The notes: generated by a model not told the origin, from the sequence alone. Positions 45,901 through 61,908 are shown, numbered from the stretch's first letter. The stretch: DNA of 64,000 nucleotides from an uncultured Acidobacteriota bacterium (GCA_963796275.1 CAWCKY010000006.1:2336001-2400000), one strand, 5' to 3'. Numbers and translations: made by a program.

Positions 45901-46136
45901 CTCTGCGAATCATCGGGGCGGGAATTCGAGGATATGAGGGCGTCGGCGAGGTGGTACGCCGGGCGATCGATCAGCAGATCGTCGCGCGCATCAGCCGCGA
46001 GCATGGCTTCCACACGACGCCGAATCTCCTCATCGCCTGCGGAGGCGTGCGCGAGCAATGTAGCGCGTTCCTCAACCGGGCATTCCACGGCAGCCTCAAA
46101 GAGCTCGTGAATCTTTTGCCAGCGTTCCGGACTCAT
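42921..46136 (-). CDS. Hanks-type Ser/Thr kinase with TM segment and TPR region
   Basis: GRGGMGTV, ALK, HRDIKPEN, DFGLAK, GTVNYMSPE; TM helix; TPR repeats. Confidence 0.95.
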   Translation of the reverse strand: MSPERWQKIHELFEAAVECPVEERATLLAHASAGDEEIRRRVEAMLAADARDDLLIDRPAYHLADALISSNSRPDDSQSFSDEVIGVYRLIKELGRGGMGTVYLAYDTRLRRRAALKLLPSPLVDNPERVRRFYREAHAASALNHPNIITIYDFGRENGRDYIASEFVEGHTLRNCINNPGHSLNQILDLVIQVASALAAAHAAGIVHRDIKPENIMLRPDGYVKVLDFGLAKLSEPESGENKINTDTQTSLDFETRAGVVMGTVNYMSPEQVRGEKVDWRSDLFSLGVILYELITWNRPFGGETWHHTMVAITDAPTPPIAGVTPGAPAALQNIIDRALAKKREERYQTAHALLDDLKTVQVSLAMDVRIQGIESENAQIVTATDGSNYRMAIRIAETSIKGARDKMSDAVLSMTARTRTLLIVAIAIMILATVAAAYLYLGGGLIPNRPALTDKDMILLTDFVNTTGDAVFDDTLKQGLMVQFEQSPYFNILSEERARETLRLMERPPDEKILREVGREICQRRGIKALLVGTIASLGRNYVITLEAINSQTGEAIGHQQIEAEGKEQVLWALGQASTAMRKQLGESLASIRKYDAPIEQATTPSLEAFKDFTIGADFRRKGQYAQSILAFKRAIERDGEFALAFVQLGASYRDLRKLALGNEYLERAYQLRERASERERLEISATFFRYITGELDKRIGTTALLTQTYPQESHGFHLHGNSLMIAGEYAQAEEAYRTVLRLDPDFSLSRANLALALIGLNRFDEAQEVIHQGAARHLDSSGFHNRLYLIAFLKDDGQAMRRQIEWFDGRPDEYQIREIEARSFAFAGRRREAGESFMEAAALAEARGLLSEKARILANEANLSAILGLTQLAKKQTARVLSLLEKKSIADEELEPSLIQQLDSQPLAWTLALCGEAALAQSLSDNLARKHPLDTMYNSVWLPLIHATMELTRGSAAGPDKAIQLLQPARQYEAAIFFKPVWIRGQALLQAKNGALAAAEFQKIIEHRGWDAISPLWPLAHLGFARAAALDGDAAKSRQAYEDFFRLWKMADADLPVLIEAKKEYVRLK

Positions 46137-46710
46137 GTTTCGCAATCGAATGGTTCAACTCTGTTTGCAACCATGCGCGGGCAGCGCGCCATCCACGTTC
46201 GACCGTGGGAGTCGAGATGCCCATGACATGAGCTGTCTCTTCAATCGTCAATCCGCCGAAAAAGCGAAGCTCGACGATTCGGCTTTTTTGCGGATCGACC
46301 TCAGCCAGGGTTTCAAGCGCCCCATTGAGCACAAGCATATCCACAACCTCTTCCTGCACGATGTTCGCTGCAGCCGTGAGAGAGATATGCTGCAGGTCAC
46401 CGCCGCGTTTGAGCCTTTGCCGCGCACGCGCGTGATCCACCAGGAGCTGGCGCATTAACCTCGCCGCGATGCCGAAGAAGTGCGCGCGACTCTCCCACGG
46501 GACCGATTGCTCGACCAGCCTTAGGTAGGCTTCATTGATCAGTTCGGCGCTTTCGAGCGTGTAGCCGGCGCGTTCACCGCGCAGTTGACGACGCGCGATC
46601 CGGCGCAAGGTGTCATAAACGAGTGGGATCAATTCGTCGCGTGCCGCATCATCGCCCCGGCCCCATGCGAGCAGCAAGTGAGTCATGTTTTCAGATACGG
46701 GGGTATTCAT
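46096..46710 (-). CDS. ECF sigma factor of the kinase-associated type
   Basis: LIPLVYDTLRRIA, LINEAYLRL, RAHFFGIAARLMRQLLVDHAR, VELRFFGGLTIEETA, WRAARAWL. Confidence 0.93.
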   Translation of the reverse strand: MNTPVSENMTHLLLAWGRGDDAARDELIPLVYDTLRRIARRQLRGERAGYTLESAELINEAYLRLVEQSVPWESRAHFFGIAARLMRQLLVDHARARQRLKRGGDLQHISLTAAANIVQEEVVDMLVLNGALETLAEVDPQKSRIVELRFFGGLTIEETAHVMGISTPTVERGWRAARAWLQTELNHSIAKHESGTLAKDSRAL

Positions 46711-47061
46711 CGTAACCAGCCAAGACACGCTGAGCTTTTTCTGCCGGTCATTAAATCATGGAGAATGAGTGATCATTAACCAGTGCCGCGCACCGGCAGA
46801 TTATGCTCCATAGTTTAGAAATAAGACAGGCATCAATTCAATTCTCTAATCTTAGTCTGAGAATTCAAAAAGATTTCGCTTGATGATGGAGTTTTAGGGC
46901 GAATGACGCATATTAAACTGAGAGCCTAATATAATTTCGCCGACACGATGGCCGTTTACTCGGCAGACGCCGCCATCCGCTCGCGGTAGTATTCGATATT
47001 GCATTCGCAGAAGAGATCTACGCCGGCGCCGAAATGTCTCCCGTTTCGCAAAGGAGTGGTC

Positions 47062-48424
47062 ATGAGAAAATCCCCCGCGTCCTTCGATCCCGCCACAGCC
47101 GGGATCGGTCATGAGCTTTACCGGATTCTGATGGAGAGTATAAATGAAGCCGTCTTTGTCATTGATCCTCACGACTTCAATCTTCTGGATGTGAATCAAA
47201 AGGCTGTCACGCTCTTGGGGTACTCGGTCGACGAGATGCTGGCCCTCGACATGGGCCGCCTTCTTCCCGAGCACGGTCTCCGACTGCGGGCCGCCGCCCA
47301 CAACGCCGAGCCGTTGATGATCGAGGAGGGACTGAGGGCGAAATGCGGAAGGGCCATCCCCTGCGCCCTGACCATTCGGGCCATCAACCATTCCGCTCGT
47401 CCCATGGCCCTCTTGATCGCCCGCGAATCGAAGGTGGAAGTTTGCCTCTCATCTATAAATCTTGCGGCGGGGCGCGAAGACCTCGTCGAAACGACGTTCG
47501 CTTTCCCAAGCATTATCGGGCAGAGCTCCCAGATTCGCCATGTTTGCCGTTTAATCGGGCTGGTGGCCCAAAGCGATGCCACGGTCCTCATCCAGGGCGA
47601 AAGCGGAACTGGGAAAGAGTTGGTCGCTCAGGCCATCCATTTTCATAGCCGTCGTGCGGAACGGCCCCTGATCAAGGTCAATTGCGCGGCGCTCACTGAA
47701 ACCCTGCTCGAAAGCGAATTGTTCGGTCACCGGAGAGGAGCTTTCACCGGAGCCATTCAAGATCGGAAGGGCCGGTTCAAGCTGGCTGACGGCGGGACCA
47801 TTATTCTGGACGAAATCGACAGTCTTTCACTTTCGGGCCAGGCCAAATTGCTGCGCGTTTTACAGGAGAGAGAGTTCGAGCCGGTCGGGGATGCCGCCAC
47901 GATCAAGGTCGACGTTCGCGTCGTCGCTGTGACCAATGCGGGATCTGACCGGGGCCATCGTCGCCGGCCGATTCAGAGAAGATTTGTATTACCGGCTCAA
48001 TGCTTTTCCGATCCGGCTCCCGCCGCTGAGAGAACGAAGAGATGATATTTCATCGCTGGTCAGCCATTTTTTGCGGAAATATTCAACCTCGCTCAGGAAA
48101 CAGATCGCCGACCTCGAGCTAGAGGCTCTGGCCATGCTCATGGACTATCCCTGGCCGGGCAATGTGAGGGAGCTTGAAAACACGATCGAATATGCCGTCA
48201 TCCTGGAGAGAGGGCGGAGCTTGAGCGCCGCCAGTCTGCCGGACAAACTTAAGCATGAGGAGAGACCGAACCACTCGCTGAAAGACCGCCTCGAAACCGC
48301 AGAGAAGCAGATAATCCTGGAGGCGTTGAGCATTACCAACGGAGTCAAGCAACGCGCGGCTGCGCTGCTCGGGATCGACCGCCGCAACTTCGGATATTTT
48401 CTCAATAAACATGGCATCAGGTAA
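47062..48424 (+). CDS. Sigma54-dependent enhancer-binding protein (PAS-AAA+-Fis HTH), one frameshift near 47938
   Basis: PAS region; GESGTGKE, ESELFGH..GAFTGA, LLRVLQE in ORF 46999-48045; continues as FREDLYYRLN, WPGNVREL and HTH in ORF 47936-48424. Confidence 0.9.
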
Positions 48425-48452: not shown

Positions 48453-48851
48453 TTACTGATTGTGAAGTGGGGATTCCAGCAAATAGAGCAAATTTCGGGC
48501 GAAATCGGTCTTGATCAGGAATTGAACTCCGACGAGCGGCGGGGCGATCCGATCCCACGCGGGTTGATCTTCAGGCTCAATCATCAGAACGATCCTGGTG
48601 TTGTTAGATAACCTGGCGAGATCGGTAGCGAATTGCAGACCGGCGGCCAGCGGGGCGCCGGCGTCCACCACGATCGCGCCATACGAGGATCGGGCGATTC
48701 TCTCAATATCTGCCTGGGCAAAACCGCCCCTCTCCTCAATCTGTTGATAGCCGGCGGAGAGGAGAAGGTTGACGATCGCTTCGCGAATTTGCTCGTCCGG
48801 TTCGATAATCAAAATGGATTGGTGAAAGGTTGTTTTCTCATAGCTCACCAC
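48453..48851 (-). CDS. Stand-alone atypical receiver (REC)-like protein
   Basis: SILIIEPDEQIREAI..LL..AGY, AIVVD, FLIK pattern; no output domain. Confidence 0.6.
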   Translation of the reverse strand: MVSYEKTTFHQSILIIEPDEQIREAIVNLLLSAGYQQIEERGGFAQADIERIARSSYGAIVVDAGAPLAAGLQFATDLARLSNNTRIVLMIEPEDQPAWDRIAPPLVGVQFLIKTDFARNLLYLLESPLHNQ

Positions 48852-48940: not shown

Positions 48941-50494
48941 CTATCGCAGCGCTTCGGTCAGGAGTAGTTGATCGACCTGCAGTGTGATATGTAACCCGCT
49001 GTGCCGATGCAAAATTCCAACGAAACCGGTATCAGGTTCGACGCGAGTTGTGTCGCCGTTGATGCGCGCCACCACCTCATCCCCAAATCGCAAGACGGCA
49101 GTCGTTTGCCGGGTTCCTATTCTGATCAGATCGAGCTTCCACGTGACTGTTTTACCCAGTTCAATTTTTCCCTCGCCCACGTCGATTCTTTCCCTGAACA
49201 AGCCGTTCGCGCTTCGGATCCGAACTCCTGCCGCAAATTTCCCGCCTCCGATCTTACGCAGGCAGGCGGCGGCTATCAGATTGTTGCCCGCCAGGAAGGC
49301 GAGAGGATGAATTACCTGGTCTCTCCCCATCCCCAGTTCCGTGGGATTAATATCCGCCTCCAGACGCCAGGACATGCGGCGGGCAGGCAAGGCGAAGCTC
49401 AACCCCGCACGGATCAATCTCCCTGGCAAACTACCGAGGTCCTGACAGAGCATATCCACTGAACCGCTTAGAGGGTTGGTGTTATTTGCCTCGCAAACAT
49501 TGCCGGATAGGAGGATCAATTCCCAATCCTGCGGCGGAAATATCCGGTCTTCGAAATCTATATTGCTGTCGACGGGTTCTTCGCCGGCTTTGCGTTCGGG
49601 CAGAGGGAACTCAGCGCGCTCCAGTTTCCCGTTCTTAACATCCAGGATATTGAGTTTTACGAATTTTTCATCTTGTGGAATGTCCTTGACGAGCACTCCA
49701 TAGTGCAGTTCGAGCAATCCTTCTCCCTTCATATTGGATTTCTGGTACCCTTCTATGGCGATTCCGTCCTTGAAGGCTTTATCGTCTCCCTTATCGCTAT
49801 CGATGGTCGCCCGGTCATCGAAGTTGACGTGAATGCTACGGGGCGCGCCGCCGTCGCCTCTCAATTCCACTTCAACAGCCTGCAAATCGCCCTCCCGCCG
49901 GTCCAGGGCTTCAAAGAAGAGCCTGATCGCCCTTTTTTCAATACCGTTGTCGGAGTAGAAATTCGTACGGTCAAGACGGGGCGTTTTAAAGTTGGCTTTG
50001 TTGATGTACGGCAGGTAATGCAGAGGGTGAACGCTGCTATCCTGGTTGGCCTCCCCTTTCCTGAACTCCATGTGTAGATGGGGATATTCCGCATCTTCCT
50101 GACCCACCGCGCCGATCAGGTCGCCCTGGTTCACCTCTTTGCCGACGATTATTCCCTCCACGATGCTGTCGAGATGAAGATAGACGAGAAATAAGTCATT
50201 CTCCCCATCCGTCGGATCGACAGCTTGAATGATTATATGAGTGGAGCCGAATCCCCCATCCGCCGGGCCGGCGCGATGCACCACGCCACTCGCCATGGCA
50301 TAAATCGGCGTGCCAACAGCGGCAGGCAGATCTATGCCGTCGTGAAAGTCCCAGCGATCGGCGTCTATCCGCGGACCGAAGGAGGTGTTCATCTCGTCTG
50401 CCGCGAAGCTTTTGCTGAGGGGCCAGATGAAATGAGAGTGGCCTTGAGCACAGCCAGATACGTGATGACCATAGTCTCTTGTTTCGTTATCCAT
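48941..50494 (-). CDS. M23 metallopeptidase with C-terminal beta-rich domains, no signal peptide
   Basis: SFGPR..FHDGIDL, GTPIYA, YLHL, HLHME; GGAGG RBS. Confidence 0.88.
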   Translation of the reverse strand: MDNETRDYGHHVSGCAQGHSHFIWPLSKSFAADEMNTSFGPRIDADRWDFHDGIDLPAAVGTPIYAMASGVVHRAGPADGGFGSTHIIIQAVDPTDGENDLFLVYLHLDSIVEGIIVGKEVNQGDLIGAVGQEDAEYPHLHMEFRKGEANQDSSVHPLHYLPYINKANFKTPRLDRTNFYSDNGIEKRAIRLFFEALDRREGDLQAVEVELRGDGGAPRSIHVNFDDRATIDSDKGDDKAFKDGIAIEGYQKSNMKGEGLLELHYGVLVKDIPQDEKFVKLNILDVKNGKLERAEFPLPERKAGEEPVDSNIDFEDRIFPPQDWELILLSGNVCEANNTNPLSGSVDMLCQDLGSLPGRLIRAGLSFALPARRMSWRLEADINPTELGMGRDQVIHPLAFLAGNNLIAAACLRKIGGGKFAAGVRIRSANGLFRERIDVGEGKIELGKTVTWKLDLIRIGTRQTTAVLRFGDEVVARINGDTTRVEPDTGFVGILHRHSGLHITLQVDQLLLTEALR

Positions 50495-50585: not shown

Positions 50586-50885
50586 CTAGCACCAGAGATC
50601 CTGGATAAACTGGCTCTTCCCGCCATTCATGTCCCTGGGGCCGAATGGAATGAGACCTTCACCCGTCATTTTATCGGCAGCCTTGCCTTGATTGGCGTTT
50701 GCCACGGCATCCCACTTGGCTATGAAGTCCGAAACATCCCAAGTTGCTACGCTTGTCTCGGCGACGCCGAGATCATGGGACCACAGACGGCGCCGGAACT
50801 TTGTCACTGCTTCCGCGTCGTCGAGCATCACATGTTCAAATACTTCAGGCTGTACACCCCCAAATGTTCGGTCATAGATATACAT
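50586..50885 (-). CDS. Short, possibly truncated protein with the cluster leader MYIYDRTFGG
   Basis: ATG at 50885 within ORF 50586-50951; leader resembles that of the 53038 gene. Confidence 0.5.
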   Translation of the reverse strand: MYIYDRTFGGVQPEVFEHVMLDDAEAVTKFRRRLWSHDLGVAETSVATWDVSDFIAKWDAVANANQGKAADKMTGEGLIPFGPRDMNGGKSQFIQDLWC

Positions 50886-50960: not shown

Positions 50961-51689
50961 TTATCTGAAAACCCATCGGAATTCTCGTATTTTGGGCTTC
51001 GGCTTATTCACAGTTGGATCTTCCTTCAGAAGTCTTAACCGCTGGAGGTCACTCAAGAACAGGCGTTTGTCGCTGTTTTCGAAATCGATATCGACGTGCA
51101 GCGGAAAAGGGTTTTTCATCAATCCTTGCGCACTGTGCTGTAAACGGTTGCCCAGATGGCCGATTTCGTGAGCTATCGTATTGACAAATGCACGCCACAG
51201 GTCGCCAGTGGCGCCGCCGGAAACCTGGTGCGTTTTGATGAATCCGACCTTTCTATATCCATCACCTGATGGAATTCCGCAGCCTAGGGTACCCATTTCA
51301 TCCCAACACGTTTTGGCAAGGTCGTAGAAATCCTGCCCCCGTATGGTTTTCGGAATCTTGTGTTGTGTCATTAGTTTCAGGATGGTCCCGGGGAGATGCT
51401 GCCTACCGAGTAAGTACACGGGAAAATCGAGTTTTCCAAACCCGCCCTTCTCGTCGTCGGAAGGTTCATTTGACCGGTATTGCGCCTGGAACCTGATATT
51501 CGCCTGCTTCAACCAGTTCGGATCCAGGTTATTGAACTTATCCTCCAATTTTGACCGGATCTCCTCGCGAAGCTTATGATCATTTTTAAAGATACCAGCC
51601 GGGTCGATAAGAATGATACGAACAAAATCCGGTTGTCTCGCTTGGGGCGGTTGCCCTAGCCGTTCATAAGCCCGAACATACATAGTCAT
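50961..51689 (-). CDS. Zincin/metzincin-like metallopeptidase with cluster leader
   Basis: AHEIGHLGNRLQH...GLM (HExxH, third His, Met-turn); N-terminus MYVRAYERLGQ. Confidence 0.75.
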   Translation of the reverse strand: MTMYVRAYERLGQPPQARQPDFVRIILIDPAGIFKNDHKLREEIRSKLEDKFNNLDPNWLKQANIRFQAQYRSNEPSDDEKGGFGKLDFPVYLLGRQHLPGTILKLMTQHKIPKTIRGQDFYDLAKTCWDEMGTLGCGIPSGDGYRKVGFIKTHQVSGGATGDLWRAFVNTIAHEIGHLGNRLQHSAQGLMKNPFPLHVDIDFENSDKRLFLSDLQRLRLLKEDPTVNKPKPKIREFRWVFR

Positions 51690-51973: not shown

Positions 51974-53038
51974 TCAAGGCCACTTCTTCACTACCTCGTC
52001 GATCACTCGATAGACGTTGATGACATCGCCAATCACGTCGGGGTTGGCGTCCGGATAGTTTTGCCATACTGCGACGAAAGGAACGCCATTGCGGTCAAGG
52101 AAGGCGCCTTCAGATTTCACGGAACTCACCTTGGCATCTACGCTGGGATGGTGACCCACCTTGGCACCCTTGCTGGTGAAGGAGAGCGTATTCGCATTCG
52201 TCGCCAGCGAGAGCCAGGAGCCGCCTCTGGACATGATTTCCATCATCTCCCGGCTGCTCGCCTGATCGACGAGCGTCCCGCGATGCATCGCCGCGAATAG
52301 TCTGGCCATGGCAAGTGCAGTCATGGCCGCCGATGACTTACCATTAGTGTCGACGGGAACATGGAACTGCTTCCAACCGCCACCGAGGTCGTTGGCGTAC
52401 CAGATGCCTCTCTTTGATTTCGGATCGAAGAATCTACCAGCGGTAAGGGCACCGTTCACGTAACTGTAACCAAGACGGCGCATACAGTTGCGCGCCGCCC
52501 AATCCTGCAGCTGATCTGCAAAGATGGCATCGAGATCTGCGCGATGCTGTTGCTTGAAGTCGAATTTGAGCACTCCGGAATCGCTCGTTGCGGCAATCCT
52601 CAATGTCTCGTCGATATTCATCTTCTTCCAGGGGCCGTCAGGAATCGACGGGACGGCCGCTGCGACCGCGGCAAAGAAGGGCTTCCAGTCCCAAGCTACG
52701 GTCGGAGCCAGGTTGTTGAGCCGTGCACGCAGTTCGAAACTCGCATACAACAGCGCCACCTTAAGAAGGCTGGCGGAGAAGAGCATGTGATTCTCTTTTT
52801 CGCCGGCATACCTCAAGGGATTTCCGCCGGTCCCTAGCTTTGCGATAGCGAACGCGACCTTTTCCAATCGTTGTTGATCTTTCAGACTCAATGTTCTCTT
52901 CACGGCGCGGATGGCTTCGGTCAGGTCCTTCGTGCGGGTTGGGTCGGAGACCATCTGTGGGCCATACGCCCGGTTGGCGAACGGTTCGACGGCCGACAAG
53001 CTTCCCAACCCTTGAAATTTACTATCGTAGATGAACAT
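51974..53038 (-). CDS. Serine beta-lactamase/PBP-like hydrolase with cluster leader, no signal peptide
   Basis: SASLLKVALL (SxxK), RRLGYSYVN, TALAMARLF, AKVG (KTG-like); N-terminus MFIYDSKFQGLG. Confidence 0.8.
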   Translation of the reverse strand: MFIYDSKFQGLGSLSAVEPFANRAYGPQMVSDPTRTKDLTEAIRAVKRTLSLKDQQRLEKVAFAIAKLGTGGNPLRYAGEKENHMLFSASLLKVALLYASFELRARLNNLAPTVAWDWKPFFAAVAAAVPSIPDGPWKKMNIDETLRIAATSDSGVLKFDFKQQHRADLDAIFADQLQDWAARNCMRRLGYSYVNGALTAGRFFDPKSKRGIWYANDLGGGWKQFHVPVDTNGKSSAAMTALAMARLFAAMHRGTLVDQASSREMMEIMSRGGSWLSLATNANTLSFTSKGAKVGHHPSVDAKVSSVKSEGAFLDRNGVPFVAVWQNYPDANPDVIGDVINVYRVIDEVVKKWP

Positions 53039-53060: not shown

Positions 53061-54425
53061 TCAGGGCCTCACGCCTTGCCTTTGCTCCAGCGTAAGCCCA
53101 TTCTCAAGAAAGCTAACAAAATGATCGACGACCTTCTCCATCTCCGGAGAATCTTTCTCGATCATCTTATCTACTCGCGCACGTTTGATTGGTTCGGGCC
53201 CCTGATATAATTGACCGTTAAACCGCAAATAGATCAAATATTGATTGGTGTAATAGGCGATTGTTTGCCGAGCCTGCTTGGAGAGCTTGGGAGTCTGCTG
53301 ACCTGGAATTAGCGCTAGCTCCGCGATGCCTCTTTCGTTCCTCGAGTTAGCAATGAATTCGTGAAATCGGCGAAGGCTTTTCTTACCATAATATGCATTA
53401 AGATTCTCTGCTAAAGAACGTGAGTGATCGTAGGCGCTTCCGACATTAATCCCGTCGATATCTCCTATTAAATCAGATCGACTTGCCTCCTTCACGAGGT
53501 AATACTCGAGTGTGAGCGGATCATGTTTGTCTATAGCGTTCCCGGCTTTGTCGGTCGCCAGCCAAAAATGCCGGATAAAAGCATGGAGGGCGCTACCCAG
53601 ATCACCCGACCAAGTTACGATTAAATCTGGTCGGTGTGGTTTGGGCAATTGTTGATCCTGATCAGGCTTCTGTTTTGGCGAGCCTTCAATTCCACAAAGG
53701 ACATGCCCTATTTCAAGCAGTTCTCCATTATCATAGAGTATTTTGTAGAGTCGGAGCCGCTCTTCTGCGGGGCTATGAAGGGCAAAAAGCGGGCTCACAT
53801 TCCGGTGTCGATACAAGACGATATTGAATGGTCCAATAAATTGCGGTTCTCTGGGGCCGCCATGGTATATCTTCCTCACCGAGGCCAAAAAATGTAAATG
53901 GGTCTGCCATGCAGGGCGAGCCTTTTCCTCGCGGTCAACGATTGCCAGGAATCCGGCTAGATCGATTAGCTCCACTACTGCTTTGGCCACGACACTCCCA
54001 CCGTTTTTGATTCCCACTGTCACTTGTACTGTGAGATGACGAACTAAGTAAGGCTTGTAGCTCATCCAGGTGGATGTGATGAATGACCCATCTTGATTGA
54101 TAGGAACAGCACCGCCGCCAGTTATCGCGATCGGCCCACCGACCCCAACATGAGCCTCGGCCTTAGCCAACGGCCAGCGACTATGATCTAGCCCGTAACT
54201 GTAATTCCGCCGGGTTCCTGCTCCGTCAATTTGAACCCTCCCGCTTAGTTTCACCGATCCGTTATATGACGACGGCGGTGTTCTGAAGAATCCCTCGTAC
54301 TGTCCGCTACTACTCCTGGTCAAGGTAATCTCGGGAATTCCATCGATCTTGAGCTTGTCGAGAGTGAGCACTGGCGATAATTGGGGTCCTTCTCCTATTT
54401 TCGTTTCGTTAACTCGTATATACAT
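53061..54425 (-). CDS. Hypothetical protein with cluster leader; beta-rich N-half and a GHV...TWSGDLGS...DLIGDIDG domain
   Basis: GGGAGG RBS; MYIRVNETKIGE leader; conserved-looking acidic motifs of uncertain function. Confidence 0.7.
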   Translation of the reverse strand: MYIRVNETKIGEGPQLSPVLTLDKLKIDGIPEITLTRSSSGQYEGFFRTPPSSYNGSVKLSGRVQIDGAGTRRNYSYGLDHSRWPLAKAEAHVGVGGPIAITGGGAVPINQDGSFITSTWMSYKPYLVRHLTVQVTVGIKNGGSVVAKAVVELIDLAGFLAIVDREEKARPAWQTHLHFLASVRKIYHGGPREPQFIGPFNIVLYRHRNVSPLFALHSPAEERLRLYKILYDNGELLEIGHVLCGIEGSPKQKPDQDQQLPKPHRPDLIVTWSGDLGSALHAFIRHFWLATDKAGNAIDKHDPLTLEYYLVKEASRSDLIGDIDGINVGSAYDHSRSLAENLNAYYGKKSLRRFHEFIANSRNERGIAELALIPGQQTPKLSKQARQTIAYYTNQYLIYLRFNGQLYQGPEPIKRARVDKMIEKDSPEMEKVVDHFVSFLENGLTLEQRQGVRP

Positions 54426-54537: not shown

Positions 54538-55191
54538 CTACTTCGCTACGTGGATGTGGTCTCGATGTGCGTTGAGTAACTTGTCTGAAATCGCTTTATG
54601 CGGTCCCTCGCCTCGCGTCCACGGCCCGAACAGTTGCACCGGATAACCTTTCGGCTGGGCCCATCCCCCATGGGCTTGCAGGGCCTTATAAAGTTTGTGG
54701 CCCAGATTGCGTTTCTTCTCCTCCTCGACCAACCGCGCGCGCGCTTGCGGGTTGGTTACAGCCTTGGCTTTGCGCATCGCGTGGTTCCATTCGTGCGCCC
54801 ATTGGCCGATGCCTTTGCCGCCGACGGCGTAAATGTCTGCTGCGCGTCCGAAACGGTGCAGCCCCAACGTGCCGCGTTTGAGAGAGACGGTTAGCAATTG
54901 CTCGGCGCTGAATCCGTTCGATTGTGCGAATTGCTCCAGGGCCTTGCTCAACTCGCTCGCCAGCGGTGGCGTGACGAGCGATTCCTGGACCGGCGAAACC
55001 ACACGATAGAACTGGCCATTCGGGATCGGTTGCAAGTTGCTTGTCTCAGCGCTCTCCGGTTGCTGCGGAGGTAAGATCGGCACTTGAGTCTGCGCGGGAG
55101 GATGCTTCAGACGAAAGAGACGTACGGGGCGCAGACGCGCCATCCGGCCATCCGGCGTTCTGACCACTCGTGAAGGTGCCCGGCGTTTCAT
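54538..55191 (-). CDS. Peptidase M15/Hedgehog-DD-peptidase-like zinc hydrolase with basic N-terminal extension
   Basis: H-x6-D (HRFGRAAD) and HRDHIHV zinc ligands; ATGA-type overlap with the upstream gene. Confidence 0.65.
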   Translation of the reverse strand: MKRRAPSRVVRTPDGRMARLRPVRLFRLKHPPAQTQVPILPPQQPESAETSNLQPIPNGQFYRVVSPVQESLVTPPLASELSKALEQFAQSNGFSAEQLLTVSLKRGTLGLHRFGRAADIYAVGGKGIGQWAHEWNHAMRKAKAVTNPQARARLVEEEKKRNLGHKLYKALQAHGGWAQPKGYPVQLFGPWTRGEGPHKAISDKLLNAHRDHIHVAK

Positions 55192-55727
55192 CTTACGTTT
55201 CTACCTCCGAAGATTTCGTTGTACCAGTAACGCCCCAGGATTCGACCGGCGAAGGAATTGATCGGATAGTTAGCCAGATTGCTGATCGAGCGATTCCTGA
55301 GAACAAACTCGACTTTGGCGTTTTCGTCGAGCCGCACTGCCACAGGCAGGCAGTTGCAACCCCACGGATTGATGATTCTCTCCAGCCTTGTATAAGGAAA
55401 GAGGGGTTTATCATTTTGCAGAATCAACCACTCGAATCCTGGCGTCTCGATTTGCGAGTTGTCGCGCGCGTAAAGATCGGTGAATTGCGCGAAATGAGTC
55501 AGCACGCCGCAATATTGCGGATGAAGTTGAAAACTCGCCAGCACTACCTGCTCGCCTCGCGGCGGCAGATTTTCGACCGGTTTTAAGGGATCGCGGAACT
55601 GTGCGAACGGGTCAGTCTCGCAAGCATCCAGCGCGATACCGATCGATCCGCTAACATCGAAATATTCGGCGTCGAGAGGGATACCGCAGATCACACAGGA
55701 ATTGTTGTTCGACGTTTTCGCAATCAT
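55188..55727 (-). CDS. Predicted beta-sandwich structural protein (minor capsid/penton-like, inferred)
   Basis: Alternating beta-strand pattern; C-terminal PVAVRLDENAKVEFVLRN...GRILGRYW parallels the neighbouring paralogs; N-terminal CxxC. Confidence 0.55.
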   Translation of the reverse strand: MIAKTSNNNSCVICGIPLDAEYFDVSGSIGIALDACETDPFAQFRDPLKPVENLPPRGEQVVLASFQLHPQYCGVLTHFAQFTDLYARDNSQIETPGFEWLILQNDKPLFPYTRLERIINPWGCNCLPVAVRLDENAKVEFVLRNRSISNLANYPINSFAGRILGRYWYNEIFGGRNVR

Positions 55728-55730
55728 CGT

Positions 55731-57053
55731 TTATCCCGGAACCCGGCCCGTGCCGAGCATTTTGTAACCCTGCAAAACCAGGGAGAGCGTACCCGCGGGG
55801 CCGGAGAGTTCTTCGACCTGAATGCGGACCGAAGATTTGGGCTCTGACATGAACGGCTTGGCAAATGGCCGGAACGGGCGGTCGCCATTGGCGACGCCGA
55901 GCCCGGCAATGTTGTGAATCGGCTTGCTCTGGTATTCGCGCCCCGTGCTGCTGACATCAAGGCTGTAGAGAAAACTCACCTCTTCCGCAGCCACAGCGCC
56001 GGTTTCGAAGATTCTTCCCAGGGTCCCGCCGGCGACTTGATCGATCGCCAGATTGGCCGCGATGAGGCCGTTCGCTTCGGGATTGAGTTTAAACCCGCGC
56101 GTCAAATCCACTCCGCTCCTCTCCAGTCCGGCGGCTAAGGCTCCCAGCGAAATATTTGACAGTCTCACGCGCGGGATGTCGAAGACGCTGAAGGCGACGC
56201 CTAGAAGGCTCGAGGGCGAGAGACCGGTGATAAGCAGATCGCCCGGTGAGAGCAGGCCGCCGAGTTCTACCAGCTTGCCAGAAGCTGTAGCGCCTGTGGC
56301 GAATTGGAAAGGCTTATCCAGTAAAGCCGACTTTCGAATCGAGGTGCTTCCATCACTCTTCAACACGGTGAGATCAACCAGGCTGTTTTGTGAACCGTAA
56401 ATATGTACACGGTCAGTGCCTGCTGACGGCAATTGTTTGGTGGTTGGATCCGGGCCAATCACTGGCGTCATGAGTGTCGAGGCGTTCAAGGGACCTATCT
56501 CCAACTGTTGGGTGAACAGGTTATTGGTTCGATCCCAGAGGAGAAACCGGCTCTCGGGGGAGATCACCGGGACCTCCTCAGTTCCTTCCAAAACCAGAAG
56601 TAGAGTGCCATCCGATCCGATCGTCCCGCTCGTCAAAATTCCAGGCAGGGTGTTTTCGAGAACTGCGATGCCTGTGGCAGGTGGGTCGTCGAGAAGCACC
56701 AGGGCGATATCTGCGCCGGGGGCGCTGGTGATGAACAACTTGTTGATATTGCCGTTCGAAAAGAATGGGACAAAAGAGGGACTTCGCAAAAGCGTATTTT
56801 GGTTGATCACCGGCCCGAAAGTGCGCGGCGTTTGGCGTTCATCCAAGACGAGGCTATAGCCGACCGACAAGGCCACGAAGACGCCCTCGGTGCTGATCTC
56901 TACGACATCCTGCACCTTGTTGCCGCGCTGCCCCAGGAGCGTGAATTGAAAGACATAATCGAAAGGGATCGTCTTCACCGCGGGCGGCGCGTTCGTGCGA
57001 ACGGCGCCGCGTTGGGGGACCGCTCTCGGATTGGGATAACCGAATTGGCTCAT
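55731..57053 (-). CDS. Beta-sandwich structural protein with a large central insertion (spike/vertex-like, inferred)
   Basis: IPFDYVFQFTLLGQRGNKVQDVVEISTEGVFVALSVGY...TGREYQSKP...GDRPF...LVLQGYK, paralogous to both halves of 57101-58513. Confidence 0.65.
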   Translation of the reverse strand: MSQFGYPNPRAVPQRGAVRTNAPPAVKTIPFDYVFQFTLLGQRGNKVQDVVEISTEGVFVALSVGYSLVLDERQTPRTFGPVINQNTLLRSPSFVPFFSNGNINKLFITSAPGADIALVLLDDPPATGIAVLENTLPGILTSGTIGSDGTLLLVLEGTEEVPVISPESRFLLWDRTNNLFTQQLEIGPLNASTLMTPVIGPDPTTKQLPSAGTDRVHIYGSQNSLVDLTVLKSDGSTSIRKSALLDKPFQFATGATASGKLVELGGLLSPGDLLITGLSPSSLLGVAFSVFDIPRVRLSNISLGALAAGLERSGVDLTRGFKLNPEANGLIAANLAIDQVAGGTLGRIFETGAVAAEEVSFLYSLDVSSTGREYQSKPIHNIAGLGVANGDRPFRPFAKPFMSEPKSSVRIQVEELSGPAGTLSLVLQGYKMLGTGRVPG

Positions 57054-57100
57054 AGTGTCGCTCTCTTACAATCGCGCCGGCGAACATCCTGACGGCGCGT

Positions 57101-58513
57101 TTAACGAAGAATCTTGTATCCCTGAAAGACCAGGAAGAGACGGCCCCTTCCGAAGATCTCTTCCACCTGCACGCGAATGGTCGAACGCGGCAGAAATGTC
57201 ATCGGTTTATGGAAGACCTTGAATGGGCGGTCGCCGTTGGCGATGCCGAGGCTGGCGACGTTGAAGGCGCGCTGGCTCTGCAACTCGCGGCCGGTTCCCG
57301 TGTCAATGATTGAATAGAGGAACCGAACCTCCTCCGGACGGTTCACGCTCTGGAACAGTCGCCCCAACAAATCCCGGCTCACCGTATTCAACTGGCCGCC
57401 GGCGGAGAAGGCGAAGCGCACGCGTAACGGATCGAGCCGGATCCCGTCGAAGAGGGATTGTACGGGTTTGATTTCTCTTAGTTTGATTTCGCCCAGTTTG
57501 AATACATCCGGATTGACCGGGTCCGGTTGGGAGTCGATCTCGATCCTGGTGTCGCCTGCGTCCAGGCTGTAGCCTACCGCCGTCGCGACATAACCTCCGT
57601 CGACATTGATCGGAACTTCGTCTTCGAGGATGTTTCCCGGTTGCCCGGTCAAATCGAGCGTCGAGACATAATCGAACGGCACGATGCGCGTCGAGGGCGC
57701 GTCGTGCTCAATCGCCTCGCCGAGCGGCCGATAGTTGCCCGTTTCGTGATCGTAGACCGGTATCTTCTTGATCGGCTCGAACTCCGCCAGCCGCCGAGTC
57801 TCTTCTTCCGCCGCCCCCGCCAGGCCGAGCACTTTGTATCCTTGCAGCGTGATGAAGAGCCTGCCCGTTACACCTGCCGTCCGCTCTTCGATCTGCAATC
57901 GAATCGTCGATCGTGGCAGGAAGACCATCGGCTGCGGCAGCATTTTGAACGGCCTCCGCCCGTCGGCGCGGCCCAGCGTCGCCAGGCTGTCCACCGGCTT
58001 GTTCTGCAACTCGCGGCCGGTTCCGGTGTCGACCAGGCTGAGCAGGAAGCTGAAATTGTCCACCGGCTTCAATCGCTGAAAAAGCTTTTGCCTTAGCTCC
58101 TGGTTCAAAGGCAAACTTGCATTCAAGCCGCCATTTTCCGATATGAGAGCGCGCAAGTTCGGATTTAGTCTGAACCCTTCGATCAGCACATCGGGGGGCA
58201 GGTTTGCTAGCTTGACATCGCCGAGGGTGGCCAGGGTAATCGGCGTGGCTGTGGTGTTAGTGGCTGGGGAGGGAACCAAGTCGACCTTCTCTGCGCGCTC
58301 TTCCGCCAAGCCGTAGCCGACGGCTGTAGCGACGAAGACGCCTTCGGCGCTGATGTTGATCACGTCCTGAACGAGGTTGCCGACCTCTCCCCTGAGCGTG
58401 AAGTCGGCCACGTACTCGTAGGGGATGACGCGCGCCGCCGGCGCGCTATGCGACTGTTCGCGACCGAACGAATTGGCGCCCCTCGGCGGATTGGGCTGAG
58501 CCATGCGGTTCAT
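57101..58513 (-). CDS. Protein with two tandem copies of the same beta-sandwich domain (double jelly-roll-like, inferred)
   Basis: IPYEYV...VATAVGY...DTGTGRELQ...RPFK..PM.FLPRSTIR.Q.EE...QGYK occurs twice. Confidence 0.7.
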   Translation of the reverse strand: MNRMAQPNPPRGANSFGREQSHSAPAARVIPYEYVADFTLRGEVGNLVQDVINISAEGVFVATAVGYGLAEERAEKVDLVPSPATNTTATPITLATLGDVKLANLPPDVLIEGFRLNPNLRALISENGGLNASLPLNQELRQKLFQRLKPVDNFSFLLSLVDTGTGRELQNKPVDSLATLGRADGRRPFKMLPQPMVFLPRSTIRLQIEERTAGVTGRLFITLQGYKVLGLAGAAEEETRRLAEFEPIKKIPVYDHETGNYRPLGEAIEHDAPSTRIVPFDYVSTLDLTGQPGNILEDEVPINVDGGYVATAVGYSLDAGDTRIEIDSQPDPVNPDVFKLGEIKLREIKPVQSLFDGIRLDPLRVRFAFSAGGQLNTVSRDLLGRLFQSVNRPEEVRFLYSIIDTGTGRELQSQRAFNVASLGIANGDRPFKVFHKPMTFLPRSTIRVQVEEIFGRGRLFLVFQGYKILR

Positions 58514-58531
58514 AACTCTTCCTCGGTTTCA

Positions 58532-58586
58532 GCCGCAGATTAACGCAGGTAGATACAGGTAGCTTTCAATCGCGCTGATCTGCGGC
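58532..58586. repeat. Intergenic imperfect inverted repeat (stem-loop) right after the putative major shell gene
   Basis: GCCGCAGATTAACGC (58532-58546) / GCGCTGATCTGCGGC (58572-58586). Confidence 0.6.
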
Positions 58587-58608
58587 CGGGTTTTCATTCA
58601 TTGCACGT

Positions 58609-59508
58609 CTATTGCACGTCGCGCGTCATGTACCCATCGAGGACGACCCAAATGAAGAGCGGCCCATAGAGTCTTTGCAGATCGCTCAGCACTTCGCTCT
58701 CCGGTACTTCGATCTCGACGCGGAAGTTCTGTTGCGCATCGATTTTCACCGCCTCGGCGAAACGAAAGGTCGCTTGTGGACTCGGATAGCCGTGCGTCGT
58801 GACCCTGCCGTCCTCCGAATATGGGCCGGCGCCGGCGGGGAAGAACCACGTCGGAACCTGAATCATGATCTTCTCGCCGACGAAGAAGGTGGTGACGGTG
58901 TTATAGATGAACTTGCCGATCAGCCCGCCGAAACCATTATTAGGGAAGATCTGTTCTTTCGCCGGAATGATATCTTTCCCGAACTTATCCACCGCCTCTT
59001 TCAATGTCGTGCGGGTGATCTCGGCCAATTCATCCGGGGCCAGCGGCTGCGTTGTTGTGTCCGGTGGGATCGCCGTGACTGTCAGACCGAGATTCTCCAA
59101 CGCGTCGAGTGACAGCCGGAGCGCCTTTATCTCCGAGCTCTCAACCCGGCGTGTGAACTCCACGAAATGCGTCAGCTTGAAGTTGCTCAGCTCCACTTTC
59201 CTATTGCCCACTGGTTGCCCGGCGCAGTCGACGACAACTACTTCGAGTTTGATGGTAGCGCTCTCAGAGACCACCGACGGCAAATCCGAGATCACCACCC
59301 GCAGCGCATGCGCCTCAAAAGTGTTCCAGTGCGGCAACAACGACGCAGCCTGCATGTTCGTCAACAACTTCGTCTTTCCCGTTACATCCTGAAAGAACCG
59401 TAAAACGTTGGATGTGAGAATCTCGCCCAATCTTCTCCCCGGTTTGATTGCGACAGCATCATATAACTGCTGATGTACTAGCTCTCTGACTCCTTTGACG
59501 ACAGCCAT
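58609..59508 (-). CDS. Putative major shell protein (single jelly-roll capsid-like, inferred)
   Basis: Strong AGGAGG RBS; GVRELVHQQLYD...LRFFQ..GKT..TNMQ...FPAGAG...G.PSP...AVKIDAQQNFRVEI...VVLDGYMTRDVQ resembles, from recall, hypothetical capsid-like proteins of tailless viruses; not verified. Confidence 0.55.
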   Translation of the reverse strand: MAVVKGVRELVHQQLYDAVAIKPGRRLGEILTSNVLRFFQDVTGKTKLLTNMQAASLLPHWNTFEAHALRVVISDLPSVVSESATIKLEVVVVDCAGQPVGNRKVELSNFKLTHFVEFTRRVESSEIKALRLSLDALENLGLTVTAIPPDTTTQPLAPDELAEITRTTLKEAVDKFGKDIIPAKEQIFPNNGFGGLIGKFIYNTVTTFFVGEKIMIQVPTWFFPAGAGPYSEDGRVTTHGYPSPQATFRFAEAVKIDAQQNFRVEIEVPESEVLSDLQRLYGPLFIWVVLDGYMTRDVQ

Positions 59509-59525: not shown

Positions 59526-60392
59526 CTACCAGAGCGGTTGAAACCAACCGCTGCGGGATTTGGATTGTTCTTCCGCAGGGCGGATGTTTTCGCAGGTCGG
59601 GTTGATTGTCCTCGGACGCTGGTAACCCTCGACGCCGTTGATGTTCTCCAACGGTACGACCCGCGGGTTGATCTCCCGCTCCCGCACATAGCCTTCGACA
59701 GGGGCTTCCGCGAAATAACCCATCTCCGGCGCATTACCGTAACCCATCACTTCTGGCGCTTCGCCGTAGTAGCCCATTTGATCGGGCGCTTCGGCGTAAT
59801 AGCCCATCTGATCGGGTGCTTCATAGACATAACCCATGGCTTCCGGTGCCTCTGCGTAATAGCCCATCTGATCGGGCGCTTCCGCGTAATAGCCCATTTG
59901 ATCGGGCTGTTGATAGACCTCGTTGACGCCGGCAAATTCCGGAGCTTCGGCGTAATAGCCCATCGTCTGTGGCACCTCATAGACGTAACCGACTTCCGGC
60001 GCCTCCGCGTAGTAACCGGTGCCTTCGACAAAACCCGGTGGCGGATCGGCGATATAGCCCATCCCGTGAGGCGAGCCATAACCGGAAACCTCCGGCGATT
60101 CGTAGATGTAACCGACCGTTTCCGGCGCTTCGCCGTAATACCCGACGTTCTCCGGCGCCTCGTAAACGTAGCCTACATTTTCCGGTACTTCATAAACGTA
60201 ACCGAGAGGCTCCGGCGCCTCGTAGACATAGCCCATCTGATCAGGCACTTCAGCGAAGTAACCCGAGATCGTGGGAGCCGGGCATCTACGCTTTCTCGCT
60301 CCTGGCTTGGGTATTGGATAGAACCGCATGCGTTTTCCTCCTTGCTGTGGTATTGGATTGACAATCATGATTTCATCGAAATGGCCTGCCAT
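59526..60392 (-). CDS. Acidic Gly-Tyr decapeptide-repeat protein (GYYAEAPDQM-like, about 19 units)
   Basis: GAGGAGG RBS; basic N-terminus, repeat core, C-terminal WFQPLW. Confidence 0.85.
   Translation of the reverse strand: MAGHFDEIMIVNPIPQQGGKRMRFYPIPKPGARKRRCPAPTISGYFAEVPDQMGYVYEAPEPLGYVYEVPENVGYVYEAPENVGYYGEAPETVGYIYESPEVSGYGSPHGMGYIADPPPGFVEGTGYYAEAPEVGYVYEVPQTMGYYAEAPEFAGVNEVYQQPDQMGYYAEAPDQMGYYAEAPEAMGYVYEAPDQMGYYAEAPDQMGYYGEAPEVMGYGNAPEMGYFAEAPVEGYVREREINPRVVPLENINGVEGYQRPRTINPTCENIRPAEEQSKSRSGWFQPLW
59700..60265 (-). repeat. ~30-bp coding tandem repeats
   Basis: e.g. GCGTAATAGCCCATCTGATCGGGCGCTT recurring on the + strand. Confidence 0.85.
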
Positions 60393-60403
60393 ATTCTGCC
60401 TCC

Positions 60404-60718
60404 TCATCCTTCAATCCCGCGCTTTGTCACCCGGTATCGACCGCCGATGATGTATAACCGCCTGCCTGTCGGATCGGCGGCCAGGACGGGAAATTGCTGC
60501 TCGAAGAAATGAACATAGTTCTGCGGAACTTCTCCGGGCGCGCGGCTGGCACGATAGATCACTCCGCGCAGTTCTCCGAGCGGCATTAACGGCGGCGCCA
60601 ATCGGATTATCCGCAGACGCCTGGTCTCGCATGCGCAACCCGAACCGCATCCGCAGGACGAGCCACAGGCGCAATCCGAACCGAATTGTGGTTGGGAACA
60701 ACCGCAAGCACACGACAT
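60404..60718 (-). CDS. Small protein: Cys-rich N-terminus plus YVHFF...LYIIGGRY.V..RGI domain
   Basis: AGGAG RBS; MSCACGC...CACGSSCGCGSGCAC. Confidence 0.75.
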   Translation of the reverse strand: MSCACGCSQPQFGSDCACGSSCGCGSGCACETRRLRIIRLAPPLMPLGELRGVIYRASRAPGEVPQNYVHFFEQQFPVLAADPTGRRLYIIGGRYRVTKRGIEG

Positions 60719-60728
60719 GACTCGACTC

Positions 60729-61310
60729 CTAGCGGAACCTCCGAACTGGAGCGCCCGGCGGCGCCGGAGCGGCTGGCTGCGGCGCGACTGTGCCCGGCTG
60801 CGCCTGGACCCCTTTTCTCGCCCCACGGCGGCGGCGAGGCCGAATGACGACCGGGATGCTCATCCAGACCGGGCGCAGGTATTGCTTGACCTGACCTGAT
60901 TCGCCGATCCCTTCAACGACTTCATAGAGTTGCCCGTCAGGCGCCTGCATTATTCCGTCCTCCGCGCCTGCCAGCCCAGCCTTTCCGAGGATGCTGCAGA
61001 GCTTGGTCCCGATTTGGTAGACCGGCTTCAGCTCCACGCTCTGTTCGGCACATGGGGCTAACTTGGGCAGGCCCTGGCAGAATCCCTTGACGGCCCCTCT
61101 CACTTGTTCGATCACCGGCCCGATCCCCGGGATGAATTTGACGGCTTTGCCGGCCAGTTTCTTGATCCCTTTCCAGAAGCCGATGTCGTTCCCCAGGCCA
61201 TCGACACCTTCCACCCATTCGTATAGCTGTCCGTCCGGTCCCGGGCGGACTTCGCCAACATAGTTGCCGATCCCCAGGACCTGTGTCGTCTCGTAAGATG
61301 CAAAAGGCAT
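60729..61310 (-). CDS. Hypothetical protein with duplicated PDGQLYE motif and a cationic amphipathic segment
   Basis: AGGAG RBS; GPDGQLYEWVEG / APDGQLYEVVEG; GFWKGIKKLAGKAVKFIPGIGP; Arg/Pro-rich tail. Confidence 0.8.
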   Translation of the reverse strand: MPFASYETTQVLGIGNYVGEVRPGPDGQLYEWVEGVDGLGNDIGFWKGIKKLAGKAVKFIPGIGPVIEQVRGAVKGFCQGLPKLAPCAEQSVELKPVYQIGTKLCSILGKAGLAGAEDGIMQAPDGQLYEVVEGIGESGQVKQYLRPVWMSIPVVIRPRRRRGARKGVQAQPGTVAPQPAAPAPPGAPVRRFR

Positions 61311-61320
61311 AAGTCTTCTC

Positions 61321-61848
61321 CTAATCAACCGGAAAATACTGTTTGTGATCTGCCGGCGGCGCCCAACCCATCGAGCGATTGACCGTTGCATCGAGCGGAA
61401 TCCACCGACCTTTGTAAAAAACTTCGAGATAGATATGCGTGAATAACTTCTTCTTCATTGGATTGAATCCAACGAGTACCAGGCGCACCGGATGGCCGAT
61501 AGACTTGAGCATAGAGGAAAGAAGGATCGTCATATCGTCACAATCGCCTGCGCGCAACTCCAGCATCCGTCTCGCCGTGTGTAGAAGCTCGACACGATGA
61601 ATATCCCGCGTGTATCGAACATTGCGTCTCACCCACTCGAAGAGGGCGTGGATCTCCCCCAGATAGTTTTTCGGCCGGATGTCGCATTGGCGCAGAATCT
61701 CGATCGCCGTTTGCCGAACGCCAAAGTCTTTTGCGCCTGCCCTGACCAGATGCGCAATCAACTCGACGGTCTTGATTGTTCCCGGATAGCCTTTGGGGAT
61801 CCGGCCGATGAAGATACGGGGCTGTGTTGAATTCGAGCATTTGTGCAT
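61321..61848 (-). CDS. Transglutaminase-like (Cys-His-Asp) enzyme, probable protease
   Basis: LFEWVRRNVRY, GDCDD, THIYLEV, WIPLDAT; ATG at 61848 downstream of the sigma54 promoter. Confidence 0.88.
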   Translation of the reverse strand: MHKCSNSTQPRIFIGRIPKGYPGTIKTVELIAHLVRAGAKDFGVRQTAIEILRQCDIRPKNYLGEIHALFEWVRRNVRYTRDIHRVELLHTARRMLELRAGDCDDMTILLSSMLKSIGHPVRLVLVGFNPMKKKLFTHIYLEVFYKGRWIPLDATVNRSMGWAPPADHKQYFPVD

Positions 61849-61892
61849 CGCCTTCTCGTTCTTTTGAATGTTCCTGACACCGTGGATAGAGG

Positions 61893-61908
61893 GCAACTGG
61901 AATGCCAA
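61893..61908 (-). promoter_or_regulatory. Sigma54 (-24/-12) promoter
   Basis: Minus strand TTGGCATTCCAGTTGC: GG-N10-GC with TGGCA and TTGC consensus halves, about 45 bp upstream of ATG 61848. Confidence 0.75.

Follow-up and report, generated by a model that had tools for sequence, protein, structure and literature searches.

Which biological entity is encoded by four adjacent genes for beta-sandwich proteins on the chromosome of an uncultured Acidobacteriota bacterium, and how are their products related to one another? The genes lie in a stretch of 64,000 nucleotides (GCA_963796275.1, CAWCKY010000006.1:2336001-2400000; hereafter the window, meaning the whole stretch, with positions counted from its first letter) of a 9.46-Mb genome, and were confirmed as open reading frames (ORFs) of 179, 440, 470 and 299 amino acids (aa), all on the minus strand, between positions 55188 and 59508. 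An original prediction, made from the sequence alone, had seen in them five copies of one domain, forming a set of major, minor and vertex capsid proteins in which a single-domain form had recently fused into a double one. Here, we describe how far this view holds, and a larger finding, namely, that the four genes are the center of a conserved bacterial module equipped with an arsenal of enzymes that share a short N-terminal leader, the tag. For comparison, 36 further loci were collected by scanning one genome per species; together with the window, they make up the 37 sources to which the counts below refer.

The repeated jelly-roll domain

The 470-aa protein (57101..58513, minus strand) is an internal duplication, as had been proposed: its residues 1-235 and 236-470 share 89 of 216 aligned positions (41%; BLASTP, E 1e-50), and the profiles of the N-terminal and C-terminal halves of its family match each other with a probability of 100% (E 9e-60). 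The 440-aa protein (55731..57053, minus strand) was rightly recognized as the same domain split by a large insert (approximately residues 75-316), given that its residues 1-73 are 46-49% identical, and its residues 317-434 39-46% identical, to both halves of the 470-aa protein (E 6e-18 to 1e-26), with about 240 unrelated residues in between. Among eight orthologs of this third paralog, identity amounts to 67-74% in the core but averages 38.5% in the insert; on these sequence comparisons, inserts change faster than cores.

The relationship of the 299-aa protein (p299; 58609..59508, minus strand) to this domain is supported by the predicted fold, a jelly roll split by an insert, but is marginal at the profile level. 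The p299 homologs conserve residues 1 to about 80 and 195-299 around a middle part that varies in length or is absent (the inserted domain occupies approximately residues 76-199 in the window protein), and comparison with the repeated domain yielded a probability of 19% over 49 equivalent C-terminal columns, and of 2.4% when larger alignments were used. An hhalign match of 98.5% between p299 and the jelly-roll family was discarded as an artefact, with the aligned region located past the end of p299 because gene calls run on into the next gene; once these gene calls were taken out, the probability was 2.4%. Some of the 50% representatives read from the p299 family into the jelly-roll N-terminus, and these are either read-through calls or real fusions. 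The insert of p299, that of the 440-aa protein and a variable loop of the single-domain form found in other loci all occupy the same topological place.

By contrast with its proposed membership, the 179-aa protein (p179; 55188..55727, minus strand) has no profile similarity to the repeated domain (hhalign probability 0.16-0.18%) or to the p299 family (0.4-0.5%; 140 sequences), where true paralogs used as positive controls reached 100%. Thus, a set of paralogs that includes insert-bearing members is real, whereas the predicted count of five copies in four genes has to be lowered: three domain copies are certain, the fourth, in p299, is supported by its fold, and the fifth, in the 179-aa protein, is unsupported. 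None of the four proteins belongs to a curated family in Pfam, PHROGs, NCBIfam or PADLOC. The 299-aa protein produced a sub-threshold Ig-like Pfam match only, and the 470-aa protein matched no Pfam family at E ≤ 0.1, hence not PF11175 (DUF2961/GH172). Sequence and profile searches of the PDB gave no credible match, with chance-level nanobody rows (E ≥ 0.3) for the p179 profile and no rows for the others, and in the ESM Atlas the 179-aa protein and a homolog matched nothing but unnamed clusters.

In an AlphaFold2 prediction based on 44 homologs (mean predicted local distance difference test score, pLDDT, 77; predicted template modelling score, pTM, 0.78), the 470-aa protein consists of two eight-stranded beta sandwiches separated by a disordered linker; single jelly rolls align with residues 26-234 and, separately, with residues 274-470. 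A Foldseek search of the PDB returned 67 matches at E ≤ 1e-3, and the best 50 of these are double jelly-roll capsid or scaffold proteins, the top ones including PBCV-1 Vp54 (6e-6), SGIV, STIV, PRD1 P3, PR772 and mavirus, with the capsid matches reaching a template modelling (TM) score of only 0.09-0.26 at a root-mean-square deviation of about 20 Å. In BFVD, a collection of predicted viral structures, tectivirus capsid proteins come first (Wip1, 1.4e-6; GC1), followed by giant-virus capsid proteins mixed with tail-fibre and carbohydrate-binding proteins. The notion of a capsid-type domain is upheld by the eight-stranded jelly roll and its nearest PDB neighbours, but not as one specific to viruses, given that non-viral jelly rolls score equally, including peptidylglycine monooxygenase (PHM; 9.4), tripeptidyl peptidase II (8.3) and nucleoplasmin (8.0). 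Each half of the 470-aa protein is predicted to be a jelly roll of the capsid, nucleoplasmin or PHM kind. In the model of the 299-aa protein (pLDDT 81), the two conserved parts join as one jelly roll into which an alpha/beta domain is inserted; it had no Foldseek match at E ≤ 1e-3, its weak top rows were again capsid proteins, and the list of its structural neighbours was largely unchanged from that of the tandem protein.

Distribution of the family and age of the fusion

At 90% identity, the relatives of the tandem form fall into at least 1005 clusters and those of the single-domain form into at least 1051, and all named clusters of both are labelled 'hypothetical protein'. The 36 loci come from about ten phyla, spanning Acidobacteriota, KSB1, Alpha-, Beta- and Gammaproteobacteria, Cyanobacteriota, Chloroflexota, Nitrospirota, Armatimonadota, Actinomycetota and Binatota. 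Most of them encode one jelly-roll gene of 175-250 aa, and this single-domain form is approximately 60-80% identical between Pseudomonadota, Nitrospirota, Cyanobacteriota and Armatimonadota; the tandem protein and the third paralog were found only in loci labelled mostly Acidobacteriota or KSB1. The module is present in 3 of 41 related genomes and in one of 301 sampled genomes of the phylum, the window's own, where it is single-copy. In four loci (L014, L015, L016 and L017; positions 7650-9990 or thereabouts in each), two adjacent p299 paralogs occur, of about 300 aa and 400-450 aa, the longer with a long, helical-looking insert, so that paralog expansion extends to the p299 family.

In a maximum-likelihood tree of 47 individual domains (six truncated or ambiguously split rows were omitted, and five ORFs lacking the domain motif never entered), the single forms (support 100/100), the N-terminal halves (99/95), the C-terminal halves (97/95) and the third paralogs (92/86) each formed one clade, and the branching of the two half clades was parallel. 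Separate clades with parallel branching therefore point, as far as sequences can tell, to one old duplication followed by fusion, so that the recent single-to-double fusion envisaged for this locus is contradicted by the phylogeny of the individual domains. Judged by sequence alignment, this is the only case met in the analysis in which single, paired and fused jelly rolls stay alignable.

A conserved chromosomal module

All-against-all clustering of the ORFs from the 36 loci and the window revealed a fixed gene order: first a transglutaminase-like enzyme and the protein p140, then p299 between a small repeat protein (before it) and a larger one (after it), and finally one or more jelly-roll genes and p179. 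The p299 family was called in 27 of the 37 sources and the jelly-roll family in 33, in constant relative order wherever both were called; the p179 gene (called in 25) always follows a jelly-roll gene. After p179 comes a variable run of genes on the same strand, often followed by a receiver-like protein (8 of 37) and a sigma-54-dependent activator (15 of 37).

All core genes of the window are on the minus strand. The transglutaminase-like cysteine enzyme (61321..61908; a 195-aa ORF, the true start of which is probably the Met codon at about 61848) matches Pfam Transglut_core (PF01841) at E 3e-13, with 50.4 bits against a cut-off of 23. Across 24 homologs, Cys98 and His133 never vary and Asp148 is kept in at least 90%, and the enzyme is 60-80% identical across phyla. 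The repeat protein p220 (60729..61391), with motifs of the type Y/W-V-x-G-V-D-G-L-G and a basic tail, belongs to a family present in 23 of the 37 sources. In p140 (60404..60826), which has no match in Pfam, PHROGs, NCBIfam or PADLOC, a Cys-rich, basic N-terminal part precedes a conserved C-terminal domain of 70-110 residues that is 41-65% identical between loci. The second repeat protein, p293 (59526..60407), consists almost wholly of G-Y-x-Y-E-A-P heptads (15 copies with a period of about 10 residues), ends with W-F-Q-P-L-W, and has orthologs (family F8) in other loci; its first residues resemble the start of the short repeat protein from other phyla. Conserved cysteines occur in p140 and in p179, where Cys14 and Cys73 are invariant along with the motifs N-P-W-G and G-R-x-W-Y-N.

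A sigma-54-type promoter motif, TGGCAT-N5-TTGCC (61892..61907, minus strand), is located immediately upstream of the first gene and is the sole strict match on its strand in 24 kb; of the 26 sources with a recognizable first gene, 7 have the strict motif near the start of the transglutaminase-like ORF, between 250 bases before it and 150 bases after it. Over the whole window, a looser sigma-54 pattern had 29 matches versus 28 expected, not above chance, and the evidence for the promoter thus consists of its position and its recurrence in other loci only. Downstream, the window encodes a receiver-like protein of 132 aa (48453..48851, minus strand; its match to Pfam Response_reg, E 2.4e-6, misses the curated cut-off) and a sigma-54-dependent activator with PAS, AAA+ and HTH_8 domains (46999..48424, plus strand) in two overlapping ORFs, the first of which matches Sigma54_activat at E 8e-59 and the second AAA_lid_14 and HTH_8. 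The activator is on the strand opposite to the module in the window and on the same strand in other loci. These sequence features suggest that the module is controlled by a sigma-54 promoter and a dedicated PAS-domain activator.

In a soil RNA library, contigs 85-95% similar to parts of the 299-aa (58606-59495) and 470-aa (57272-57952) genes were found. One contig of 951 bases spans the 299-aa gene with the letters of the insert region replaced by others, which fits a variable insert. These contigs, which derive from relatives of the window's genome and might include DNA carry-over, give at most a hint of transcription.

Just past the module are genes for a serine/threonine kinase of 1074 aa and for an ECF-type sigma factor (42921-46728, minus strand), an adjacency that is not conserved elsewhere. 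Immediately upstream of the module, on its strand, two Nitrospirota loci and one Vicinamibacterales locus carry an ORF of 1190-1363 aa with no Pfam family (L038:329-4417, L040:1915-5484 and L042:2191-5787); a DUF2959 gene precedes it in L040 and L042, and the long ORF may be an extra component of a subtype.

A shared N-terminal tag on envelope-degrading enzymes

The variable genes downstream of p179 are linked by the way their products begin. When only ATG sites with 70 or more codons behind them are considered, 76 of the 933 (8.1%) that lie on the operon strand and no further than 9 kb downstream of p179 encode M-Y-[ILMV], compared with 11 of 1742 elsewhere on the same strand, and 2 of 804 and 5 of 519 on the opposite strand. 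At least one such start is present in 28 of 35 sources, and the consensus of about 10 residues reads M-Y-I-R-T-x-E-G-L-G-Q. When a tag matrix built without the window was applied to the 1292 candidate starts of the genome, the top three all fell within this cluster. The codons and the upstream DNA differ among the tagged genes; because neither is conserved, the signal lies at the peptide level, and a DNA-level cassette or repeat was rejected as the source of the shared starts.

The best tag score in the genome (18.0) belongs to a 240-aa protein (50961..51683, minus strand) that starts with M-Y-V-R-A-Y-E-R-L-G-Q, the second best to a small ORF of 99 aa (50586..50885, minus strand; M-Y-I-Y-D-R-T), and the third to a 454-aa protein (53061..54425, minus strand; M-Y-I-R-V-N-E). 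A further tagged gene encodes a beta-lactamase-like protein of 354 aa (51974..53038, minus strand; Pfam Beta-lactamase2, E 5.5e-7) with the start M-F-I-Y..G-L-G. The domains identified in tagged genes are Trypsin_2, OmpA, Amidase_2, Amidase_6, Peptidase_M15_3, M74, VanY, SLT, Aspzincin_M35, Extensin-like_C, Patatin, Lipase_3 and PG_binding, so that the tagged classes comprise trypsin-like and M35-like proteases, peptidoglycan amidases and peptidases, a lytic transglycosylase, a patatin-like phospholipase and a class-3 lipase.

Two genes of the same run in the window are untagged. A conserved 217-aa protein (54538..55191, minus strand) is present in 13 of the 37 sources and has no Pfam match; its C-terminal H-x-H appears peptidase-like by eye only. 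An M23-type peptidoglycan peptidase of 517 aa (48941..50494, minus strand) matches PHROG endolysin families at E 1.6e-16 as well as NCBIfam models, and untagged M23 proteins of 517-527 aa are present in 6 of 37 sources. In several loci (L024:14997-15527 and L040:16313-16912, each with the M23 gene that follows), the enzyme run ends with a conserved untagged pair that consists of a protein of approximately 180-200 aa without a Pfam family and this 517-527-aa peptidase with its large C-terminal domain; of the pair, the window contains the M23 member only.

The tag is also related to the repeats of a core protein. A strict 9-mer form, Y-[IVLM]-x3-[DE]-G-[LIVM]-G, was detected in 7 of 24 proteins of the p220 (larger repeat) family, with 9 copies in total, and close to the start of 10 of 295 other ORFs on the operon strand; it was found in none of 193 opposite-strand ORFs and in no other core family. 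The heptad of p293 is a related Tyr-containing motif.

In five sources, none of the core or cargo proteins examined had an N-terminal hydrophobic segment. The lack of signal peptides, along with the conserved cysteines of p140 and p179, would be compatible with a jelly-roll fibre or tube that is assembled in the cytoplasm, like the jelly-roll endospore appendages of Bacillus, and decorated by the tagged enzymes. Such a fibre appears very improbable, however, because capsid-type neighbours rank higher in the structural searches and the host phyla are not spore formers.

A more serious contender, although still an unlikely one in our judgement, is a complex for handling or delivering enzymes that forms no closed shell. 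Under this scenario, p179 and the jelly-roll proteins would serve as adaptors or chaperones, or would form a small oligomeric platform, akin to nucleoplasmin-type pentamers or lectin-like jelly rolls; they would bind the tag and hold, activate or hand over effectors in regulated autolysis, in suicide upon infection or for export via machinery encoded elsewhere. Cellular jelly rolls (PHM, nucleoplasmin, GOLD domains and FlhE) scoring as high as capsid proteins, the very high conservation, which suits adaptors with multiple partners, and the sensor-activator regulation are all in line with it; moreover, a cargo of peptidoglycan hydrolases, patatin, lipase and proteases resembles effector arsenals, and phospholipases could work from the cell interior. 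Nevertheless, seven conserved core genes with two to four jelly-roll paralogs and two repeat-rich proteins exceed what an adaptor needs, the variable inserts of two paralogs suggest an exposed surface, and there is no secretion component in or beside the module.

Viral and defence context

If the jelly-roll proteins were the major and minor capsid proteins of a virus, as originally predicted, relatives would be sought among viruses and mobile elements. None of 49 candidate stretches in IMG/VR holds a relative, and none was detected in 50,697 phage records or 72,556 plasmids. No conserved packaging ATPase, integrase or replication gene is part of the module, where, as in the ORFs scanned around it, the only ATPase found is the sigma-54 activator. 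A scan of 131 longer non-core ORFs from 18 loci showed the flanking ones to be housekeeping genes; a serine recombinase was found in one locus and an IS integrase in another, with no packaging ATPase or replication protein. The provirus idea was further set back by the lack of a tRNA within the window and of a conserved recombinase in the scanned ORFs. With no virus gene conserved and no relatives in these collections, the viral capsid set is not sustained. An anti-phage defence system was also considered and dropped, given that none of 13 module proteins matched a PADLOC model.

An unrecognised or defective provirus, reduced to a structural and lysis part with vertical single jelly-roll capsid proteins (SPV1-like, Helvetiavirae-like or tectivirus-like) and with the hydrolases acting as virion-associated or lysis enzymes, could account for the nearest solved folds, which are capsid proteins of such viruses, for the two adjacent jelly-roll genes, which recall the Helvetiavirae capsid pair, and for the patchy distribution (3 of 41 relatives and 1 of 301 phylum genomes). 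According to excerpted text of PMC8812541, packaging ATPases are missing also in SPV1 and FLiP. All the same, integrase, replication, packaging and membrane proteins are not conserved in the 36 loci, the flanks are housekeeping, IMG/VR, phage and plasmid records contain no relatives, the module has a sigma-54 promoter and activator of its own, and a cross-phylum identity of 60-80% is unusual for capsid genes, so that we consider a provirus improbable. On our reading, the module is conserved, horizontally spread, chromosomal and cell-regulated rather than viral.

Proposed explanation

The analysis established the folds and paralogy of the jelly-roll proteins, the synteny of the core, a specific tag and a promoter motif, and showed that membrane and virus genes are lacking. 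Our tentative proposal, in which we place somewhat less than even confidence, is that the module encodes a virus-like jelly-roll assembly, owned by the cell, that loads tagged envelope-degrading enzymes. The paralogous jelly-roll proteins would self-assemble into a virus-like, multi-subunit particle or shell, made up of the single or tandem jelly-roll protein, p299 with its variable insert and, in this lineage, the third, insert-bearing paralog, and the two proteins rich in short repeats would serve as the scaffold. The downstream genes would supply soluble envelope-attacking enzymes, devoid of signal peptides and each provided with the N-terminal tag of about 10 residues. The tag resembles the repeat motif of the scaffold-like protein, and tag and repeats would therefore dock on the same assembly site, where the transglutaminase-like Cys-His-Asp enzyme may trim or cross-link them. 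Transcription would start from the sigma-54 promoter under the PAS-domain activator, and the product might be used as a weapon freed on lysis of the producer, as a safe store of dangerous lytic enzymes or for regulated self-lysis. Two to four constrained jelly-roll paralogs, two of them with fast-changing inserts, two repeat-rich proteins and a conserved cysteine enzyme fit a self-assembling structure with a scaffold and a maturation step, and, by analogy, a tag held in common with a scaffold-like repeat fits a loading signal. That a particle assembles, that the tag mediates loading, what the transglutaminase-like enzyme does and what purpose the product serves are what we infer.

Several findings weigh against this proposal. 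No aligner placed both halves of the tandem protein on a double jelly-roll capsid protein, VIA aligning at most 133 residues and one domain at a time, and capsid proteins rarely keep 60-80% identity across phyla. Neither a holin nor a membrane protein is encoded in the module, and there is thus no evident route by which hydrolases in a cytoplasmic particle would reach the peptidoglycan. Gln occupies tag position 11 in just 21 of 76 cases, which weakens the idea of the tag as a transglutaminase substrate. Finally, the activator of the window is split into ORFs of 348 and 162 aa by a break inside the AAA+ domain; the split could be a frameshift or an assembly error, and, because of it, the module may be silent in this genome.

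Taken to its full extent, the proposal would describe a capsid-type particle that is distributed over many phyla, owned by cells and controlled by sigma-54, and that packs an arsenal of envelope-degrading enzymes by means of a ten-residue tag, as an equivalent of encapsulins made from jelly rolls or as a 'protein bacteriocin' of isometric shape, encoded by a family that keeps single, duplicated but unfused, and fused stages and could serve as a model for the origin of the double jelly-roll capsomer. We regard this extended version as doubtful.

Comparison with known systems

Full-text literature searches (subscription journals and supplements were outside their scope) yielded no description of the module or of the tag. 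To our knowledge, bacterial protein compartments are built either from HK97-fold proteins, as in encapsulins, or from BMC shell proteins, and phage-derived weapons are tail-like. If the shell reading is true, the module would represent a new kind of bacterial particle made from capsid-type jelly rolls, furnished with a loading tag that is both very short and portable, and would offer a natural collection of lytic enzymes. Even if no particle is formed, the tag marks out a new class of envelope hydrolases under common regulation, in at least 2000 protein clusters that are all annotated as hypothetical.

Encapsulins resemble the module in its proposed working, in that the gene for a shell-type protein with a viral fold lies beside enzymes that carry a short common peptide. 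Encapsulins are described as having an HK97 fold and mostly C-terminal peptides. Their cargo is metabolic or stress-related, whereas here there are a jelly-roll fold, an N-terminal tag, seven core genes and a cargo of lytic enzymes. Another parallel to the combination of tag, repeat proteins and transglutaminase-like enzyme is the capsid-targeting system of phage T4, where, according to excerpted text of PMC9958956, an N-terminal capsid-targeting sequence of about 10 residues directs internal proteins to the scaffolding core, which the prohead protease later digests; the proteins, fold and protease class of the two systems are unrelated, and cleavage is only proposed here.

Among viruses, the Helvetiavirae (SH1, HHIV-2, HCIV-1 and P23-77, with VP16/VP17) and SPV1 likewise have two adjacent jelly-roll genes, one product of which bears an extra domain. 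The module differs from them by having no sequence similarity, no ATPase and no membrane protein, by its arrangement as a sigma-54 operon on the chromosomes of many phyla, and in being known from genes and models. Tandem jelly rolls are also present in cellular proteins (DUF2961/GH172, PHM and PNGase F), which are named as cellular double jelly-roll families by Krupovic and colleagues in excerpted text of PMC8812541. Unlike these, the proteins described here show no Pfam DUF2961 match and no carbohydrate-metabolism context, and each PHM match covers one domain's worth.

The excerpted part of PMC8812541 also weighs duplication and fusion in cells against the same events in viruses with two single jelly-roll proteins, and notes that pairwise sequence similarity among double jelly-roll capsid proteins is undetectable even inside a family. 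These capsid proteins (PRD1 P3, PBCV-1 Vp54, STIV and those of tectiviruses), the best Foldseek matches of the tandem protein, likewise have two consecutive jelly rolls per chain; here, by contrast, the halves are 41% identical, the structural alignments reach TM scores of 0.09-0.26 and there is no virus context. The family bears on virus evolution in that its single, paired and fused jelly rolls can be aligned by sequence, unlike viral double jelly rolls, which retain no such trace; as the forms are still alignable, the order of duplication, fusion and insertion can be read from the tree.

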